From: Candidatus Woesebacteria bacterium
GTDB taxonomy: Bacteria; Patescibacteriota; Microgenomatia; UBA8517
NCBI GenBank assembly: GCA_003484955.1
Contig: DMZH01000001.1
Span: 215,848 to 279,847 of the forward strand
DNA length: 64,000 nt
Direction: 5' to 3'
Below are positions 393 to 37,727 of this stretch, one piece after another. Position 1 is the stretch's first letter, and the number at the start of each line of letters is the position of its first letter. A program made the position numbers and the translations under genes. The notes under the pieces were generated by a model that ran no database searches, had not been told where the DNA came from, and saw only the letters and a program-made list of their open reading frames with translations.

Positions 393-645
393 TCCCCTGT
401 AGCTCAACGGTAGAGCGAGATCCTGTCGAAAATGGCAGCTCTTGATAGTAATTTCAAGATGAAAATCAGGCTAATTCGGGGAACACCTTTTTAAGGCCAA
501 TCCCGAGCTAAACCACGAAAGTGTAAATGTGTAGAGACTATATACCTGACACCCATTTTGGGTGATGAGATAGTCCAATCCTTTTGGTAACAGAAGGGCT
601 ATTGTAAGATCGAGGTTGGAGGTTCGAATCCTCCCGGGGGAGCCA
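393..645 (+). tRNA. tRNA-Asn (anticodon GUU) interrupted by a group I intron between anticodon positions 35 and 36; CCA is encoded
   Basis: 5' exon 393-426: acceptor tcccctg, ta, D-arm gctc-aacggta-gagc, anticodon stem agatc, loop c-t-g-t. 3' exon 605-645: t-a-a, gatcg, variable aggtt, T-arm ggagg-ttcgaat-cctcc, acceptor cggggga, discriminator g, cca. The cloverleaf forms only if 427-604 is removed. Confidence 0.7.
427..604 (+). ncRNA. Group I self-splicing intron (about 178 nt) inside tRNA-Asn
   Basis: U at the end of the 5' exon can pair with G of an internal guide sequence (exon ctgt with gcag at 435-438). There is a P7-like pairing agacta (535-540) with tagtc (571-575), and a terminal G at 604. 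The intron is inserted in the anticodon loop, as in known bacterial tRNA group I introns. Confidence 0.6.
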
Positions 646-677: not shown

Positions 678-1721
678 ATGTTGTCTTTACATCAATTTTA
701 CGAGAAGATAAATACGCCTGAGGGAAAACGGGAAATTATTGTAGCCTTTTCAAATATTGACGAAAGAGATCCCAATCAAGCTGATAATTTTTTCCAAACC
801 TATTGTGTAGGTCAATGGAATGCTGATAGAGCTTCAGTCATATATCATCAAAGGGATTACATAGGAAGAATTGACTCTTATCAGGATCTTCTTTTGCTTC
901 TCAAGAAAAATGACAAGGAAAAATTTAATAAAATTCACAAAGGAACCCCATATTGTTTTTTAGGATGGTTATATTTTGACATTGGAGATTATGAAAAGGG
1001 TGTTTTTTACATAGACCTCGCCATTCTTGAGGATATTAGAATGCATGGTACCTATTGGAACAAATCTCCCGCAACAAGATTATTAACTCTAGAAGAAACA
1101 AATGGCGATGTAGAAATCCATAAAAGGCTCGTAAAAAATATTAAAGAGTTACTAAGATTAGAAATTGAAGAATATAAAAAATTGACCAAGGAATCAAAAT
1201 TAACCTCAATAGATAATTTTGTTAAAAATGGTCTTAAAAATCCTCATCACCGAACAATAGTATCCTCACTTTATGCATATATATTGCAGCAAGAGTCACT
1301 ACAGAATTTGATGAAACTAAAAGGTGAAGAGTCAGGTTCTATAGAGCCATTTTTAATTCATTTTAGAAAAGGAACGATAATACTAGAAACAATATTAAAA
1401 GAAACCTATTCAAGTTTGTCCGGGTTAACTTTGGCGAATATCCTAAATGACCCATTTGTAATAAAGGATAGTGGGTTAAAACTTTTGGATTCAGGAAAAG
1501 TAGGCTCAACATTGGAAGATTTAGTTAAAGTACTAATCCCATATTTTGATAGAGGGACAAATGAGCCTCAAAATAAATGGATCACAGTTGCGTATCGTTT
1601 GAGGAATGTTACTAGTCATGGATTGCCTTGGTCAGAAATAATAGATGCAGCTACTTATAAGCGGCTATATCAGCAAATCTTATTTTCAATATTTTATATT
1701 ATCGACAAAAAATATTCGTAG
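678..1721 (+). CDS. Hypothetical protein (347 aa) with a C-terminal HEPN-like R-x4-H motif (RLRNVTSHG)
   Basis: Long ORF immediately 3' of the tRNA. I see no recognisable catalytic family apart from the RNVTSH motif near residue 305, which resembles the R-x4-6-H signature of HEPN RNases. Confidence 0.6.
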   Translation: MLSLHQFYEKINTPEGKREIIVAFSNIDERDPNQADNFFQTYCVGQWNADRASVIYHQRDYIGRIDSYQDLLLLLKKNDKEKFNKIHKGTPYCFLGWLYFDIGDYEKGVFYIDLAILEDIRMHGTYWNKSPATRLLTLEETNGDVEIHKRLVKNIKELLRLEIEEYKKLTKESKLTSIDNFVKNGLKNPHHRTIVSSLYAYILQQESLQNLMKLKGEESGSIEPFLIHFRKGTIILETILKETYSSLSGLTLANILNDPFVIKDSGLKLLDSGKVGSTLEDLVKVLIPYFDRGTNEPQNKWITVAYRLRNVTSHGLPWSEIIDAATYKRLYQQILFSIFYIIDKKYS

Positions 1722-1881
1722 TAATTAATTAAGACTATTTTTTACTAAATTAATTTCCTCTCTGATTTGAGCGACAAGCCTAAAGTTTGAAAAAGCCTCG
1801 TAAATATGTGACAATTGCGTGGTTATATTAGTGTTACGATTCTCGAGCCAGTTGGGTCTTAATCTGACCAATTGATAAATT

Positions 1882-2613
1882 ATGTTGACAAAAGAAGAAG
1901 TAATAAAGGAAATCCAAAAATGGGCCAAGGAGAATGGTGGTCATACTCCAAGTGCAATAAAATTTGAAGAAATAACAGGAATTGGACCATATGAATTACC
2001 GAAATATTCCTGGTCTAATTACGGTGAACTTGTCCTTGAAGCTGGATTAACCCCCAACCTTTTTGATAAAACTAAATATAGTCACCAAGATTTATGCAAG
2101 ATGTTTGTAAGAGTAATTCGCGAAAAGGGAAAATGGCCAACCAGAGCTGTTTTAGAAATTAAACACAGTCACGATTCGAAATTTCCCGCCTCTGCAACTT
2201 TTTACAAAAAACTTGGTCAGACTGGAGATTTGGCACAAACGATTCTCGAATATGTCAAAGACAAACAAGGGTATAAAGACGTAGTAAATATTTGTACACC
2301 AGTTTTAGGAAAATATAAAAATGAAAGTGAGACTTCTGTGGATAATATGGCAGAGCATGGTTTTGTATATTTAGGTTTACAGCACGGGGATTACAAAATT
2401 GGTTTTACAAAAGATTTAGACCGTCGTAGGGAAGATATTACTTTATTAGGATCAGGACCGATGGTTTGGATATATGAAATAGAAACAGATGATATGCGCG
2501 GTGTTGAGAGATATTGGCACAATAGATTTGAATCTAAATGGATCAGGGGTGAGTGGTACAAGTTAAATCAGTCAGATGTAAAAGCTTTCAAGCGCTGGAA
2601 ACGAATCCTTTAA
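1882..2613 (+). CDS. GIY-YIG / T5orf172-domain nuclease-like protein (243 aa) with an N-terminal domain of unknown function
   Basis: C-terminal segment GFVYLGLQHGDYKIGFTKDLDRRREDI...EIE...RGVERYWHNRFESKWIRGEWYKL fits the GIY-(x10)-YIG catalytic core with conserved R and E (T5orf172-type). Confidence 0.7.
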   Translation: MLTKEEVIKEIQKWAKENGGHTPSAIKFEEITGIGPYELPKYSWSNYGELVLEAGLTPNLFDKTKYSHQDLCKMFVRVIREKGKWPTRAVLEIKHSHDSKFPASATFYKKLGQTGDLAQTILEYVKDKQGYKDVVNICTPVLGKYKNESETSVDNMAEHGFVYLGLQHGDYKIGFTKDLDRRREDITLLGSGPMVWIYEIETDDMRGVERYWHNRFESKWIRGEWYKLNQSDVKAFKRWKRIL

Positions 2614-2856
2614 TTAACAAGTTGTGACTTTTGTTAACAATTTGATTTGTTTTAATCTTTCTCTCGCTTGTTCAGCCCAGATTGCATTTTGAAAAGCCTT
2701 GATAACATGGGACAAAGCAGTGGTCAGTGCGAAACTAGGAACAGGGAGCTTAAGATGGCTTTATATATTTCTTCTGAATGGGAAAGGAACATGAGATGAA
2801 AGGTTGTGAATTTTGCCATATAATAAGTCAGTAAATAAAATTACAGGAGAATTAAT

Positions 2857-3072
2857 ATGTGTGAACAAGAAAAACCGTTCCAATGGGCCGAACCGGAAGT
2901 ACCGGAAAAATTGCCAGAATCTACAGAAGATGATGGTATGTCATATACAAGTGTTGCCGAATTACTGGATAATGAATTAAATATTGATATAAAAAGATTG
3001 GGTGAACTGGATATTGAAATTAAAAGGTTAAAAGAAGTAAATTCGGAAATCAACCCATCTGGTGGTCCATAA
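2857..3072 (+). CDS. Small acidic hypothetical protein (71 aa)
   Basis: ORF preceded by a good Shine-Dalgarno (caggagaattaatATG). Coiled-coil-like acidic sequence. Alternatively, the antisense ORF 2841-3053 is the real gene. Confidence 0.4.
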   Translation: MCEQEKPFQWAEPEVPEKLPESTEDDGMSYTSVAELLDNELNIDIKRLGELDIEIKRLKEVNSEINPSGGP

Positions 3073-3087
3073 TTTGTTAAAGAGATT

Positions 3088-3306
3088 TCAACCTATCTCA
3101 AACACCTTGTTTTTTGATTTTTCGCCCCATAGAAGAATCACTTTTCCTCGGCTTACCTCAAAATGTTTTGCCAGGGCTTCAACCACAGCTCTGTTAGCCT
3201 TTCCTTCCAGCGGGGGAGCATTTACATAAACATGAGTGGCTCCCAATAAATCTTTTTCTATTCTTGGATTCTTTGTATTTGGATGAGCGATTATTGATAA
3301 TTTCAT
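3088..3306 (-). CDS. DUF167 / YggU family protein
   Basis: 72 aa; pattern ...YVNAPPLEGKANRAVVEALAKHFEVSRGKVILLWGEKSKNK is typical of UPF0235 (YggU). Confidence 0.7.
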   Translation of the reverse strand: MKLSIIAHPNTKNPRIEKDLLGATHVYVNAPPLEGKANRAVVEALAKHFEVSRGKVILLWGEKSKNKVFEIG

Positions 3307-3397
3307 TAACCAATTATAGTGGTGTTTGACTTCTTTTTGCGTGGGACTTAATGTAAATCCTCAGTTTATATCCAGTTTCTTATGGTAGAGTATAAGT

Positions 3398-3700
3398 GTG
3401 GAAGAAGATTTGCGCATTTTGACTGAAGATGAAATTGAGAAAAAATTAAAGGATTTTCCCGGTTGGGAGTATCGTGATAATAAAATTACTAAGAAGTTCC
3501 AGTTTGGCAGTTTTGATGAAGCGGTTCAGTTTGTGGAAAAGCTTGCTCCATTTTCCAATAGAATAGACCACCACCCCGATGTTCATATTTATTACAAAAA
3601 GATAGTTTTTGATCTTCAGCGCTTCAGTGTGGGAGGAAAAGTGACCCCGAGAGACTTCACTGTTGCCTCAGAAATCGAACGTCTTTTTGCAGCAAAATAG
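3398..3700 (+). CDS. Pterin-4a-carbinolamine dehydratase (PCD/DCoH family)
   Basis: 100 aa; WEY...FQFGSFDEAVQFVEKLA...DHHPDVHIYYKKIVFDLQ matches the PCD family HHP core. Confidence 0.75.
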   Translation: MEEDLRILTEDEIEKKLKDFPGWEYRDNKITKKFQFGSFDEAVQFVEKLAPFSNRIDHHPDVHIYYKKIVFDLQRFSVGGKVTPRDFTVASEIERLFAAK

Positions 3701-8178: not shown

Positions 8179-9083
8179 CACCTTACGTCTCCACCACAAT
8201 GTTGACAGTTGCTGATGAGTTGTCCAAAAGGTCTTATATTTGATCTTCCGCATTTGGGGCAGGTAAAACTAAGAGAACCATATTTATCCTCAAGTCCGGT
8301 TAAGTTCAAAGTTAAAGACTGGCTTTCAAGAGACGAAACAGATGATGATCCGCTGCAACTGACGGCAAATTTACCGACAAGCCCCTTTTCCTGCATTTCA
8401 TCAGCAATGGACTTGGCACTAGCTCCCGAATGAATCAGATCGACAAAATGGTGAATCAATTCATGGCTTGGGAGAGGGATATTATTTGCTTTAGTGCCTA
8501 TTAACTCTAAAAGATTCCCTAAATGAAAATCCCCATCAACTATGAAAAGTTTATTTCTTAATACTTCAGGGTCTTTAATTCCGGCAAAAACAGGGTTTAA
8601 CTTTGTTGCAACTTCCAAAGTGTGGTCTTTGGCTGTGTCAAAAAGCACGGTCACATTAAAAGTGGTTTTTTCTCCCAAAGGGGTTTCTTCTATTTGGTAC
8701 ATGGTGATTTTGTTGCATGGGTAGACAGAGTCGTATGACGGACTGATCCAGAGGGCTGTGCCCGACGGATTTTCCGATACCCAGGATGTTAACGTATTAA
8801 GAAGTTCTGCATCTTTTTGGCCAAGATAGGAGGACGTGTTGATTTCAATCCGCGTACTGGTTTGAAAATCAAGTAACTCTCCATTTTTATATCTGAATTT
8901 ATATTCGTCAGGCTTTCTGTGTGTTTCGTTAAATGTACTTATTATCTCTTCCCTTAAACGGTCTGGTTTGGTATATCTCCAAGAGGGGATAAACTTTTCG
9001 ATTGTTTTTGTTGGAGACTCTATGTGTGACATATTCCTGCTCGGGACTAAAAGATTGGGCTCTGGATGTAACAGTAGCGGCAC
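8175..9083 (-). CDS. Hypothetical protein with an HExxH motif and a C-terminal CxxC...CxxC zinc ribbon
   Basis: 302 aa; SHELIHHFVDLIHSG (HExxH) and C-terminal CPKCGRSNIRPFGQLISNCQHCGG. The true start may be the internal Met (MSHIESP). Confidence 0.55.
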   Translation of the reverse strand: MPLLLHPEPNLLVPSRNMSHIESPTKTIEKFIPSWRYTKPDRLREEIISTFNETHRKPDEYKFRYKNGELLDFQTSTRIEINTSSYLGQKDAELLNTLTSWVSENPSGTALWISPSYDSVYPCNKITMYQIEETPLGEKTTFNVTVLFDTAKDHTLEVATKLNPVFAGIKDPEVLRNKLFIVDGDFHLGNLLELIGTKANNIPLPSHELIHHFVDLIHSGASAKSIADEMQEKGLVGKFAVSCSGSSSVSSLESQSLTLNLTGLEDKYGSLSFTCPKCGRSNIRPFGQLISNCQHCGGDVRC

Positions 9084-9183
9084 TTCTACGGAATTGCACC
9101 GTAATTCACCAATTGGTTTAATGTACTTTTAACACGCCTTTCGGTCAAGTGGTATATTTATATTAGTAAGGGGGTGATGGTGC

Positions 9184-10194: not shown

Positions 10195-10850
10195 TTTTCG
10201 TAAATTACAAAACTTTTGAAGAAGGCTCCGGTGAAAAAGCAGTTGCTCTGACCAGAAAAATTGAGGAGGCAGCCCATGAATCGCAAGTAAAGATAATTCC
10301 GGTAGTTCAGATAATTGATGCCGAGGTAGTTTTGGCTTCTACTACTCTTGAGGTTTGGATACAGCATGTGGATCCTCTTAATTACGGTCCGCATACTGGT
10401 TGGACTCTACCTGAAGAGGTAGCAAGGATCGGTATTTCGGGAGTATTTCTGAATCATTCCGAGCACAAATTTAACGATTTTGAGGCTCTCCGCACGGCAA
10501 ACGAAAAAGCAAAAGAGGCAAATCTCAAAACACTAATTTTTGCAGGCAGTCTTGAGGAACTGAAAAATATTGCGGCACTTAAACCAACCCTTGTTGCTTA
10601 TGAACCGCCGGAGCTGGTGGGTTCAACCGAAACATCAGTTGCCAGGGCGCAGCCGGAAATTATTTCTCAGGCGTATAATATTACTCAAAGCTCTGGTGAG
10701 CCTTTGATAGTGGGTGCAGGGGTAAGCTCGATGGAGGATATTAAAAAGAGTTTGGAGCTTGGAGCGGTGGGTGTTGCTATTGCAACGGCGGTAGTTAAGG
10801 CCCCCGATCCCAAAGCAAAATTGTTAGAATTAACGGAGGGTTTTAAATGA
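10191..10850 (+). CDS. tpiA: Triosephosphate isomerase, short archaeal-type
   Basis: 219 aa; NYKTFEEGSG, LNHSEHKF, AYEPPELVGS, GAGVSS fit the short (about 220 aa) archaeal-type TIM rather than the about 250-aa bacterial form. Confidence 0.7.
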   Translation: MIFVNYKTFEEGSGEKAVALTRKIEEAAHESQVKIIPVVQIIDAEVVLASTTLEVWIQHVDPLNYGPHTGWTLPEEVARIGISGVFLNHSEHKFNDFEALRTANEKAKEANLKTLIFAGSLEELKNIAALKPTLVAYEPPELVGSTETSVARAQPEIISQAYNITQSSGEPLIVGAGVSSMEDIKKSLELGAVGVAIATAVVKAPDPKAKLLELTEGFK

Positions 10851-12506: not shown

Positions 12507-13193
12507 CTATTTCTTGTTATTTGCCAAGAGTGTTTTGACGACTCTGACGGGATATTCCAGAAAGAATGATTCCGGATGTTTCTTGAGTCTTCTTGCTGAG
12601 ATTCCCACGATCAGGGCGGGGTCGTATCCGATCCTGCCTCCGACTTTTGCAATTTTAAGTGATAAATCCATATCTTCATGAACTTTTTTGTCATCCATTT
12701 CCACAATATCTTTTACTTGCGTCCAGATTTTTTTGGTAATAACCATGTTGGGTCCGATCAAATATTTTTTACCTTTTGCTATCAATTTGAACGATTTCCA
12801 GGCTAAATCCGCGGGAAGGGTTGAAGTCGACTTAAGTATTTCCGAGTCGTTAAAAAAAACGGGTCCGGTAAGGGCGTCAATGTCTCCTTTTTCAAAATTA
12901 CTTTTAATCCTCTTGATCCAATCTTTTGGAACAACCGTATCCGCATCACATCTGGCAATAATTTCGTATTTGGCTGAATTAAAACCCCTATTCCTGGCCG
13001 GAGTCATACCTTGAACCTTTTCATTGACTATTCTTGCCCCAAACTTTCTGGCAAAAGTCTCCGTCTTGTCCGTCGAGTTATTATTTACAACAATGATTTC
13101 ATCCGCCGAAACCACCTGGTTGACGACACTTATAAGACATTTTTTTATATATTTCTCCTCGTTGTAGGCGGGAATTACTACAGAAACCCTCAT
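12507..13193 (-). CDS. Family 2 glycosyltransferase
   Basis: 228 aa; VSVVIPAYNEEKYIKKCLISV...IIVVNNNSTDKT...ARCDADT (DxD) is classic GT2. Confidence 0.8.
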   Translation of the reverse strand: MRVSVVIPAYNEEKYIKKCLISVVNQVVSADEIIVVNNNSTDKTETFARKFGARIVNEKVQGMTPARNRGFNSAKYEIIARCDADTVVPKDWIKRIKSNFEKGDIDALTGPVFFNDSEILKSTSTLPADLAWKSFKLIAKGKKYLIGPNMVITKKIWTQVKDIVEMDDKKVHEDMDLSLKIAKVGGRIGYDPALIVGISARRLKKHPESFFLEYPVRVVKTLLANNKK

Positions 13194-35945: not shown

Positions 35946-36016
35946 GTGGGCTCGCATGGAATCGAACCATGGCATCGACTTTATAAGAGTCGTGTCCTAC
36001 CATTAAACGACAAGCC
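35946..36016 (-). tRNA. tRNA-Ile with a genomically encoded UAU anticodon
   Basis: Reverse complement gggcttg-tc-gttt-aatggta-ggac-a-cgact-cttataa-agtcg-atgc-catgg-ttcgatt-ccatg-cgagccc-a folds as a cloverleaf. The anticodon loop ct-TAT-aa gives UAU. No encoded CCA. Confidence 0.75.
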
Positions 36017-36062
36017 CGTTACTATCAAAGTCTAGTCGTATTATAACAGAAGAGAGGCTGTT

Positions 36063-37440: not shown

Positions 37441-37447
37441 CTTCTTG

Positions 37448-37727
37448 TTGCGGGGCTGGGAGTTGAACCCAGCCTGTGAGATTATGCTTTTCGCGTTTCT
37501 CCGGTTTCCCGGAGTGTCGGACTATGTCTTCCCCGAAACAAGTTCGGAGTCTGGCGTATAGTCTCTACGGACTCGCCACATTCAGTTATGAATGTGGATT
37601 GCCTCGGCGTTACCCTGTGACTCGAATAATCTTGTCATTTAGGTTTCACCGATACAGTCAGATTTCATTCTAATCTCTTAGAAATGGCCCAATTTGAGCC
37701 TCACGTGCAGCCGTACACTACCCCGCA
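37448..37727 (-). tRNA. tRNA with anticodon CAU (Met / Ile2-type) interrupted by a group I intron between positions 33 and 34
   Basis: Minus-strand 5' exon 37727-37697: tgcgggg-ta-gtgt-acggct-gcac-g-tgagg-ct. 3' exon 37486-37448: cataa-tctca-cagg-ctggg-ttcaact-cccag-ccccgca-a. Acceptor, anticodon and T stems pair perfectly only after removing 37487-37696. Confidence 0.65.
37487..37696 (-). ncRNA. Group I self-splicing intron (about 210 nt) inside the CAU tRNA
   Basis: 5' exon ends in U that can pair with G of an IGS (exon ggct with intron ggcc). There is a P7-like agactata (plus-strand 37559-37566) with atagtc (plus-strand 37520-37525), and a terminal G before the 3' exon. It has the same architecture as the tRNA-Asn intron. 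Confidence 0.55.

Follow-up and report, generated by a model that had tools for sequence, protein, structure and literature searches.

Near one end of a 64-kb stretch of DNA from Candidatus Woesebacteria, a CPR bacterium (the window), two segments that look like the halves of a single tRNA are separated by 178 nt. Which tRNA do they encode, what separates them, and how could a mature tRNA be made? We conclude that the locus is very probably a tRNA-Asn(GUU) gene that carries an ORF-less group I intron between U35 and U36 and is restored by group I splicing. Joining 393-426 to 605-645 produces a canonical tRNA-Asn(gtt) in ARAGORN, 75 nt long, with an encoded CCA, a 7-bp acceptor stem closed by U1-A72, a discriminator G and the anticodon loop CUGUUAA; this cloverleaf forms only once 427-604 is taken out. 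The gene is organized as follows.

366-374, + strand: TGATATAAT, which may be an extended -10 promoter element, 18 nt before tRNA position 1; a weak candidate found by eye
393-426, + strand: 5' exon (acceptor 5' strand, D-arm, anticodon stem 5' strand, C32 U33 G34 U35), from ARAGORN on the spliced sequence
427-604, + strand: group I intron, 178 nt, without an ORF; RF00028 at 70.7 bits, structure backed by covariation
605-645, + strand: 3' exon (U36 A37 A38, anticodon stem 3' strand, variable loop, T-arm, acceptor 3' strand)
642, + strand: discriminator G, within the 3' exon
643-645, + strand: encoded CCA, within the 3' exon

The junction falls within the anticodon, after the fourth loop nucleotide, and the predicted spliced junction reads GAGATCCUGU joined to UAAGAUCGAGG, likewise written GAGATCCTGT joined to TAAGATCGAGG. 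In its unspliced form, 393-645 goes unreported by ARAGORN at default settings and by Rfam's tRNA model, as the initial annotation of this DNA had expected of standard finders; the same tools report five other tRNAs in the 64-kb window, and default ARAGORN found no second tRNA-Asn there. A scan for consensus promoters near the gene gave nothing above shuffled sequence, leaving TGATATAAT as the sole candidate, and a scan for intrinsic terminators at the locus found none.

The intervening segment has the full complement of group I elements. The covariance model RF00028 (group I catalytic intron) matches 415-597 on the + strand with 70.7 bits (E = 6e-16; gathering score 50), and the match spans the whole model, 1-253. 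We assigned the individual elements by homology with the Rfam alignment and with the seed alignment of Williams 2020; A1 and A2 are the two alignments of relatives described below.

423-428 with 433-438, + strand: P1 hairpin, exon CUGU (423-426) and intron CG (427-428) paired with UGGCAG (433-438)
435-438, + strand: internal guide GCAG of P1; 5' splice site marked by the wobble pair U426·G435; loop L1 AAAA
440-447 with 452-459, + strand: P2 hairpin, GUAA tetraloop at 448-451; all 7 pairs change on both sides
466-470 with 545-549, + strand: P3; in A2 all cells (100%) are paired and covariation is seen at 3 of 5 pairs
476-481 with 501-506, + strand: P4; in A1, 97% paired, with covariation at 5 of 6 pairs
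482-485 and 497-500, + strand: J4/5 and J5/4, enclosed by P4
486-489 with 493-496, + strand: P5, enclosed by P4; all 4 pairs covary in A2
507-508 with 529-530, + strand: P6; covaries in A1
514-516 with 521-523, + strand: P6a, GAAA loop; 98% paired, all 3 pairs covary (A2)
534 and 536-540 with 571-576, + strand: P7, A535 bulged, 3' strand UAGUCC
550-555 with 559-564, + strand: P8 hairpin; all 6 pairs covary (A2)
577-579 with 601-603, + strand: P9.0; 87% paired, variants AAU/AUU, AAG/CUU, AGA/UCU and ACG/CGU
580-586 with 591-597, + strand: P9, enclosed by P9.0, GUAA tetraloop at 587-590; 98% paired, all 7 pairs covary
604, + strand: omega G, the last intron base, with the 3' splice site directly after it; no other G gives back the 7-nt loop CUGUUAA

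These assignments bear out what the initial annotation had read from the letters: its exon and intron coordinates were exact, its exon-terminal U·G pair with a guide is U426·G435 within CUGU (423-426) and GCAG (435-438), its agacta (535-540) and tagtc (571-575) supply the two sides of P7, and its terminal G is G604. The CUGU/GCAG pairing is unchanged in 23/23 sequences of A1 and 49/49 of A2, while the fifth P1 pair covaries (CG 31, GC 10, AU 5, UG 3). The 5' strand of P7 is equally invariant (23/23 and 49/49) and agrees with the GUAGAGACUA core of the Williams seeds; G536-C575, with the adjacent bulged A535, is unchanged in all relatives aligned and by homology would be the guanosine-binding pair. 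All 55 pairs of the window intron are standard, and P10 amounts to 2 bp at most (U605·G434 and A606-U433). The intron follows an Azoarcus-like minimal plan, with P2, P9.0 and GNRA loops on P2 and P9, and with neither P2.1 nor P5abc. Protein-spliced tRNA introns of the archaeal/eukaryal type are short, typically lie at 37/38 and present a bulge-helix-bulge cut by a splicing endonuclease; the window gene does not fit that type, its junction being at 35/36 and its insert a 178-nt sequence with a full group I core. Judged by its architecture, the intron appears to be IC3-like, of Azoarcus type, and a database cited by Williams 2020 (10.1101/2020.01.27.920355) is reported there to place classical bacterial tRNA introns in class IC3.

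The fold is supported both thermodynamically and by compensatory change. Folding, which the initial annotation had proposed as a check along with the covariance search, gave a minimum free energy structure with most of P1 and with P2, P3, P4, P5, P6a, P8 and P9 (z = -3.1), in which the tRNA anticodon stem closes the whole intron. We then compared two sets of sequences drawn from the matches listed: A1, the window intron plus the 22 shortest Asn introns (n = 23), aligned with structure-blind MAFFT, and A2, 49 distinct members of the window intron's lineage. Proposed partners were paired in 83.6% of cells in A1 (vs 65.3% in shuffled alignments and 34-49% with partners slid by 1-3 columns) and in 94.2% of cells in A2 (vs 79.5% and 34-47%). 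Changes on both sides were seen in 41/55 pairs of A1 and 34/55 of A2, and in neither alignment did any of 500 shuffles match the observed percentage paired or covariation score. In A2 each variable helix (P2, P3, P5, P6a, P8, P9 and P9.0) has pairs in which both partners changed; P4, P6 and P7 do not vary there, partly because the retrieval pattern fixed those helices. Four strain contigs that cover the tRNA-Asn region are 100% identical to the window over 301-700, so that they offer neither within-species covariation nor an intron-less allele. The EF-P gene of the window occurs on a 750,195-bp contig (ERZ936476 k127_325966) of sediment metagenome PRJNA167727 and on many near-identical contigs. 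The EF-P, Pgk and EpmA-like proteins of the window exactly match NCBI entries of Candidatus Woesebacteria bacterium GW2011_GWA1_40_43 and of an ACD aquifer bin, which makes the host a CPR bacterium with a small genome.

With the intron's sequence, boundaries and covariation-backed fold in hand, two other ways of reading the same letters can be weighed. ARAGORN in intron mode, run on the unspliced DNA, shifts both boundaries by two nucleotides and reports tRNA-Thr(tgt) i(33,178) with an intron at 425-602, and relatives with a GTG at the end of the intron show this ambiguity of two nucleotides as well. We reject these boundaries, and with them a tRNA-Thr(UGU), as next to impossible, because the intron would end in U602 in place of a G, because its exon would end in CCU, for which the intron has no complementary guide (CUGU/GCAG is invariant in 72 relatives), and because the exon body is Asn-like among 118 listed homologues: U1 pairs with A72 (641 in the window) in 114/118, G73 is present in 117/118 and the loop is CUGUUAA in 118/118. 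We take U1-A72 and discriminator G73 to be features of bacterial tRNA-Asn identity. The 60-aa minus-strand ORF at 471-653 could instead be a real gene to which the RNA features are incidental, and it is indeed an open frame with a GTG start. We consider this vanishingly improbable: the frame overlaps both the covariation-backed ribozyme and a tRNA exon, and substitutions in relatives preserve RNA pairing. Since it has no Pfam match and is absent from the gene calls of the four identical strain contigs, we agree with the initial annotation that it is spurious.

How the tRNA-Asn would be restored follows the general group I scheme; its chemistry, and its independence of protein, we infer from family membership. 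The split gene would be transcribed as a single precursor, in which the guide GCAG and the exon end CUGU form P1 and U426·G435 sets the 5' splice site. An exogenous guanosine held in P7 would attack this site; G604, placed by P9.0, would then occupy the same guanosine pocket, and the freed 3'-OH of U426 would attack the bond after G604, ligating the exons into a 75-nt tRNA with the loop CUGUUAA. Because P10 is so short, it is probably the tRNA anticodon stem that aligns the exons and holds them together. The cyanobacterial and chloroplast tRNA-Leu(UAA) intron is likewise a classical group I intron in a tRNA anticodon loop, differing in its host tRNA, its site between U34 and A35, its length of about 250 nt or more and its core variant; there, exon alignment is said by Zaug, McEvoy and Cech (in 1993) to owe more to the anticodon stem than to a long P10.

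Would this intron splice in the cell, and would it do so unaided? Splicing might have been lost, leaving a dead tRNA gene whose function another tRNA-Asn gene supplies, and both the very small size of the intron and the extent of our view, 64 kb of a roughly 750-kb genome, leave some room for this. The core helices and the invariant core nucleotides are nevertheless all intact, the exons still form a perfect cloverleaf and encode the CCA, the 64-kb window holds no further tRNA-Asn, and CPR genomes of about 0.75 Mb usually have single-copy tRNAs; we therefore think loss of splicing improbable. A dependence on protein deserves more attention, although we still judge it unlikely. The intron is about 27 nt below that of Azoarcus (205 nt), the smallest well-studied self-splicer, and so may need protein or high Mg2+; a cofactor could be required for efficient splicing in vivo because peripheral stabilizing elements are minimal, with 178 nt against the 205 nt of Azoarcus and with short P5, P6a and P8, and many group I introns are described as dependent on protein cofactors (PMC2813881). 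Weighing against such a dependence, the intron keeps the Azoarcus-type hardware for tertiary contacts (GNRA loops on P2 and P9, and P9.0), over 70 distinct sequences share its compact design, and no candidate cofactor gene adjoins the locus. We favor a group I intron that excises itself from tRNA-Asn.

Split tRNA-Asn genes of this type are already published as Asn.4Ug and abound in uncultivated bacteria, so the window gene is not novel as a class. Williams 2020 (bioRxiv 10.1101/2020.01.27.920355) counts 5,292 bacterial tRNA genes split by group I introns in 21 settings, and its seeds include Pam37.Asn.4Ug, with the same tRNA and site, and Asp.4Ug and Tyr.4Ug, with the same CUGU context before the site; group I introns in CPR tRNAs have also been reported (PMC8172020), and the tRNAscan-SE 2.0 paper states that the program is not designed to detect group I introns. 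The window gene shares with Asn.4Ug the tRNA-Asn GUU host, the break between CUGU and UAA after the fourth loop nucleotide, U at -1 and the omega G. The published seed, in contrast, is about 272 nt long with P2 and P7.1/7.2-type insertions, and ranks only 89/100 in similarity to the window intron, which by sequence comparison is a member of a different and more compact core lineage. Closest is a seed from another host: Wba81.Asp.4Ug, at 82% identity, ranks 1/100 by one alignment method and with a hand-transcribed seed that may contain small errors, and the best Asn intron (L105) stands just behind it. This Asp.4Ug seed has the same CUGU 5' context, the GCAG guide and the core GGCUAAUUCGGGGAA...AAUCCCGAGCUAAA...GUGUAGAGACUAUAUACC, but interrupts tRNA-Asp(GUC) and is 196 nt long. 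The Azoarcus intron is alike in plan, lying in a bacterial tRNA anticodon loop with GNRA-capped P2 and P9 and P9.0, lacking P5abc and P2.1, and having in common with the window intron the core GUGUAGAGACUA...AUAGUCC. It differs in being inserted after position 36 (after CAU), 27 nt longer, G+C-rich and experimentally shown to self-splice, and is the most distant seed compared (rank 100/100).

How widespread is the arrangement? We searched with a single pattern that ran from the P7 3' strand through the omega G and UAA to the T-arm. Of the 42 loci that it found in IMG/VR, 12 could be typed as tRNA-Asn and 4 as tRNA-Lys(UUU) split at 35/36. In species-representative genomes it found at least 120 loci; a split tRNA could be restored at 108 of those listed, and all but one of these are tRNA-Asn(GUU). 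The identical insertion site, with U-1 and omega G, is found in at least 119 tRNA-Asn genes, and among the matches listed the hosts include Patescibacteria, Omnitrophota, Cyanobacteria, Acidobacteriota, Elusimicrobiota, Planctomycetota and Nitrospirota. The 119 listed Asn introns measure 180-590 nt: 7 are below 200 nt, 85 lie at 200-350 nt and 27 at 423-590 nt. Most of the longest group carry a conserved sense ORF in their 5' third (longest frames 74-174 aa) with the motif CxxC...HH...CxxCH and the consensus ...KGGKCxICGY...LEFHH...CANCHREIH..., which matches the full Pfam HNH profile below threshold (17-20 bits vs a cut-off of 21.4); examples are L056 (CP006914.1), L117, L125, L098, L170 and about 20 others. 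The ORF presumably encodes a homing endonuclease of this tRNA-Asn intron family, and to our knowledge it has not been described. A search of the window intron for an endonuclease ORF found none, the longest overlapping sense ORF being 20 aa; the window intron is the ORF-less version within a mobile family in which the HNH-like ORF occurs in longer introns. In the same data, an Rfam search at the gathering threshold reports tRNA-Asn introns of 190 nt and 196 nt but misses those of L154 (5294-5473, 180 nt) and L105 (2095-2283, 189 nt); the most compact introns can thus escape even RF00028.

To follow the window intron's own lineage irrespective of its exons, we searched metagenomes with an exon-agnostic core pattern, which returned at least 118 loci, and typed these by a P1 within 30 nt, an omega G and a tRNA of 71-78 nt. 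At about 25 of the listed loci the 3' splice site is formally ambiguous by 2-5 nt. The listed loci fall as follows.

tRNA-Asn(GUU), loop position 4: 59 unambiguous loci and about 23 with a 3' splice-site ambiguity of 2-5 nt; introns 176-242 nt
tRNA-Asp(GUC), same loop position: 14-15 loci; introns 173-199 nt
Lineage core not placed in a tRNA: 6 loci
Doubtful Leu(CAG) calls: 2 loci
Too near a contig end for typing: 15 loci

Among the matches listed, introns of the lineage thus measure 173-242 nt, and most are shorter than the 205 nt of Azoarcus. The initial annotation had placed 178 nt at the lower size limit of group I introns. That holds in so far as the window intron is the shortest of 120 Asn introns (itself and the 119 listed above), but not in general: the shortest introns of the lineage measure 176 nt for tRNA-Asn hosts and 173 nt for tRNA-Asp hosts, so that 178 nt is a typical length within it. 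A literature search for an explicit statement on the smallest group I intron gave nothing usable, its one match concerning group II introns. A crude clustering by distance puts the Asp introns together in a single group inside the diversity of the Asn introns, and the Asp intron of L197 is nearest to the window Asn intron, at 80% identity; these relations suggest, and only suggest, a few host switches between the two tRNAs with the CUGU context. We raise tentatively, at somewhat less than even confidence, the idea that the CUGU-site lineage may hold the smallest natural self-splicing group I ribozymes, below Azoarcus in size, and may have moved between tRNA-Asn and tRNA-Asp, since both offer the same CUGU target to the guide GCAG.

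Several loci of the lineage are unusual in their setting. Two intron-split tRNA-Asn genes lie a few kb apart on opposite strands of the same metagenome contig both in L177 (7508-7584, + strand, and 10487-10577, - strand) and in L205 (11537-11626, + strand, and 12994-13083, - strand). The six cores that the final typing did not place in a tRNA are L173, L187, L221, L237, L242 and L262, of which L221 had been typed as Asp in an earlier pass. The core of L173 (6042-6146, on an IMG/VR contig) is preceded by an ORF ending in ...CPKCHKKYDNK and may belong to an intron that carries an ORF and interrupts a gene for a phage protein.

The class being published and abundant, the window gene adds little scientifically, and its consequences are largely practical. 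Because standard finders miss the split gene, tRNA-Asn would look absent from this CPR bacterium's genome and from numerous other genomes; completeness checks and codon-usage inferences should therefore add an intron-aware pass. A large family of introns below 205 nt, shared by two tRNAs and with HNH-like relatives, may also be of interest for ribozyme structure and intron mobility.

The window holds other features of note. A second group I intron of 210 nt lies at 37487-37696 (- strand; RF00028 58.2 bits, match at 37498-37706) and splits a tRNA(CAU) between U33 and C34, that is, between GGCU and CAUAA, with exons at about 37697-37727 and 37447-37486; it is closest to the Ile2.2Ug seed of Williams. 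The spliced product is reported by ARAGORN as a 71-nt tRNA-Met with no encoded CCA, and either Met or Ile2 identity is possible; it does not resemble an initiator, as it has U1-A72 and its anticodon stem lacks three consecutive G-C pairs. The window also encodes a tRNA-Ile whose anticodon is UAU, 1.5 kb away from the split tRNA(CAU) (35946-36017, - strand). According to the tRNAscan-SE 2.0 paper, tRNA-Ile(UAU) replaces Ile2(CAU) in no more than 17 of the surveyed bacterial genomes, and the decoding of AUA in this genome may merit attention.

Closer to the split tRNA-Asn, 1.2 kb downstream, is a gene for a 243-aa MUG113/T5orf172 (GIY-YIG-like) protein (1882-2613, + strand) that bears a weak homing-endonuclease-associated repeat. 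The region 678-3400, from the tRNA-Asn to a Pterin_4a gene, varies among near-identical strains, with MazE antitoxin, ParA-like and PF1765-like inserts in L004, L005 and L008, and looks like a strain-variable island beside the tRNA-Asn. Further along, an AdoCbl-II (cobalamin) riboswitch match at 9048-9125 (- strand), barely at threshold with 36.8 against a gathering score of 36.5, lies directly upstream of a 285-aa gene that lacks a Pfam domain and has a Cys-rich C-terminal end.
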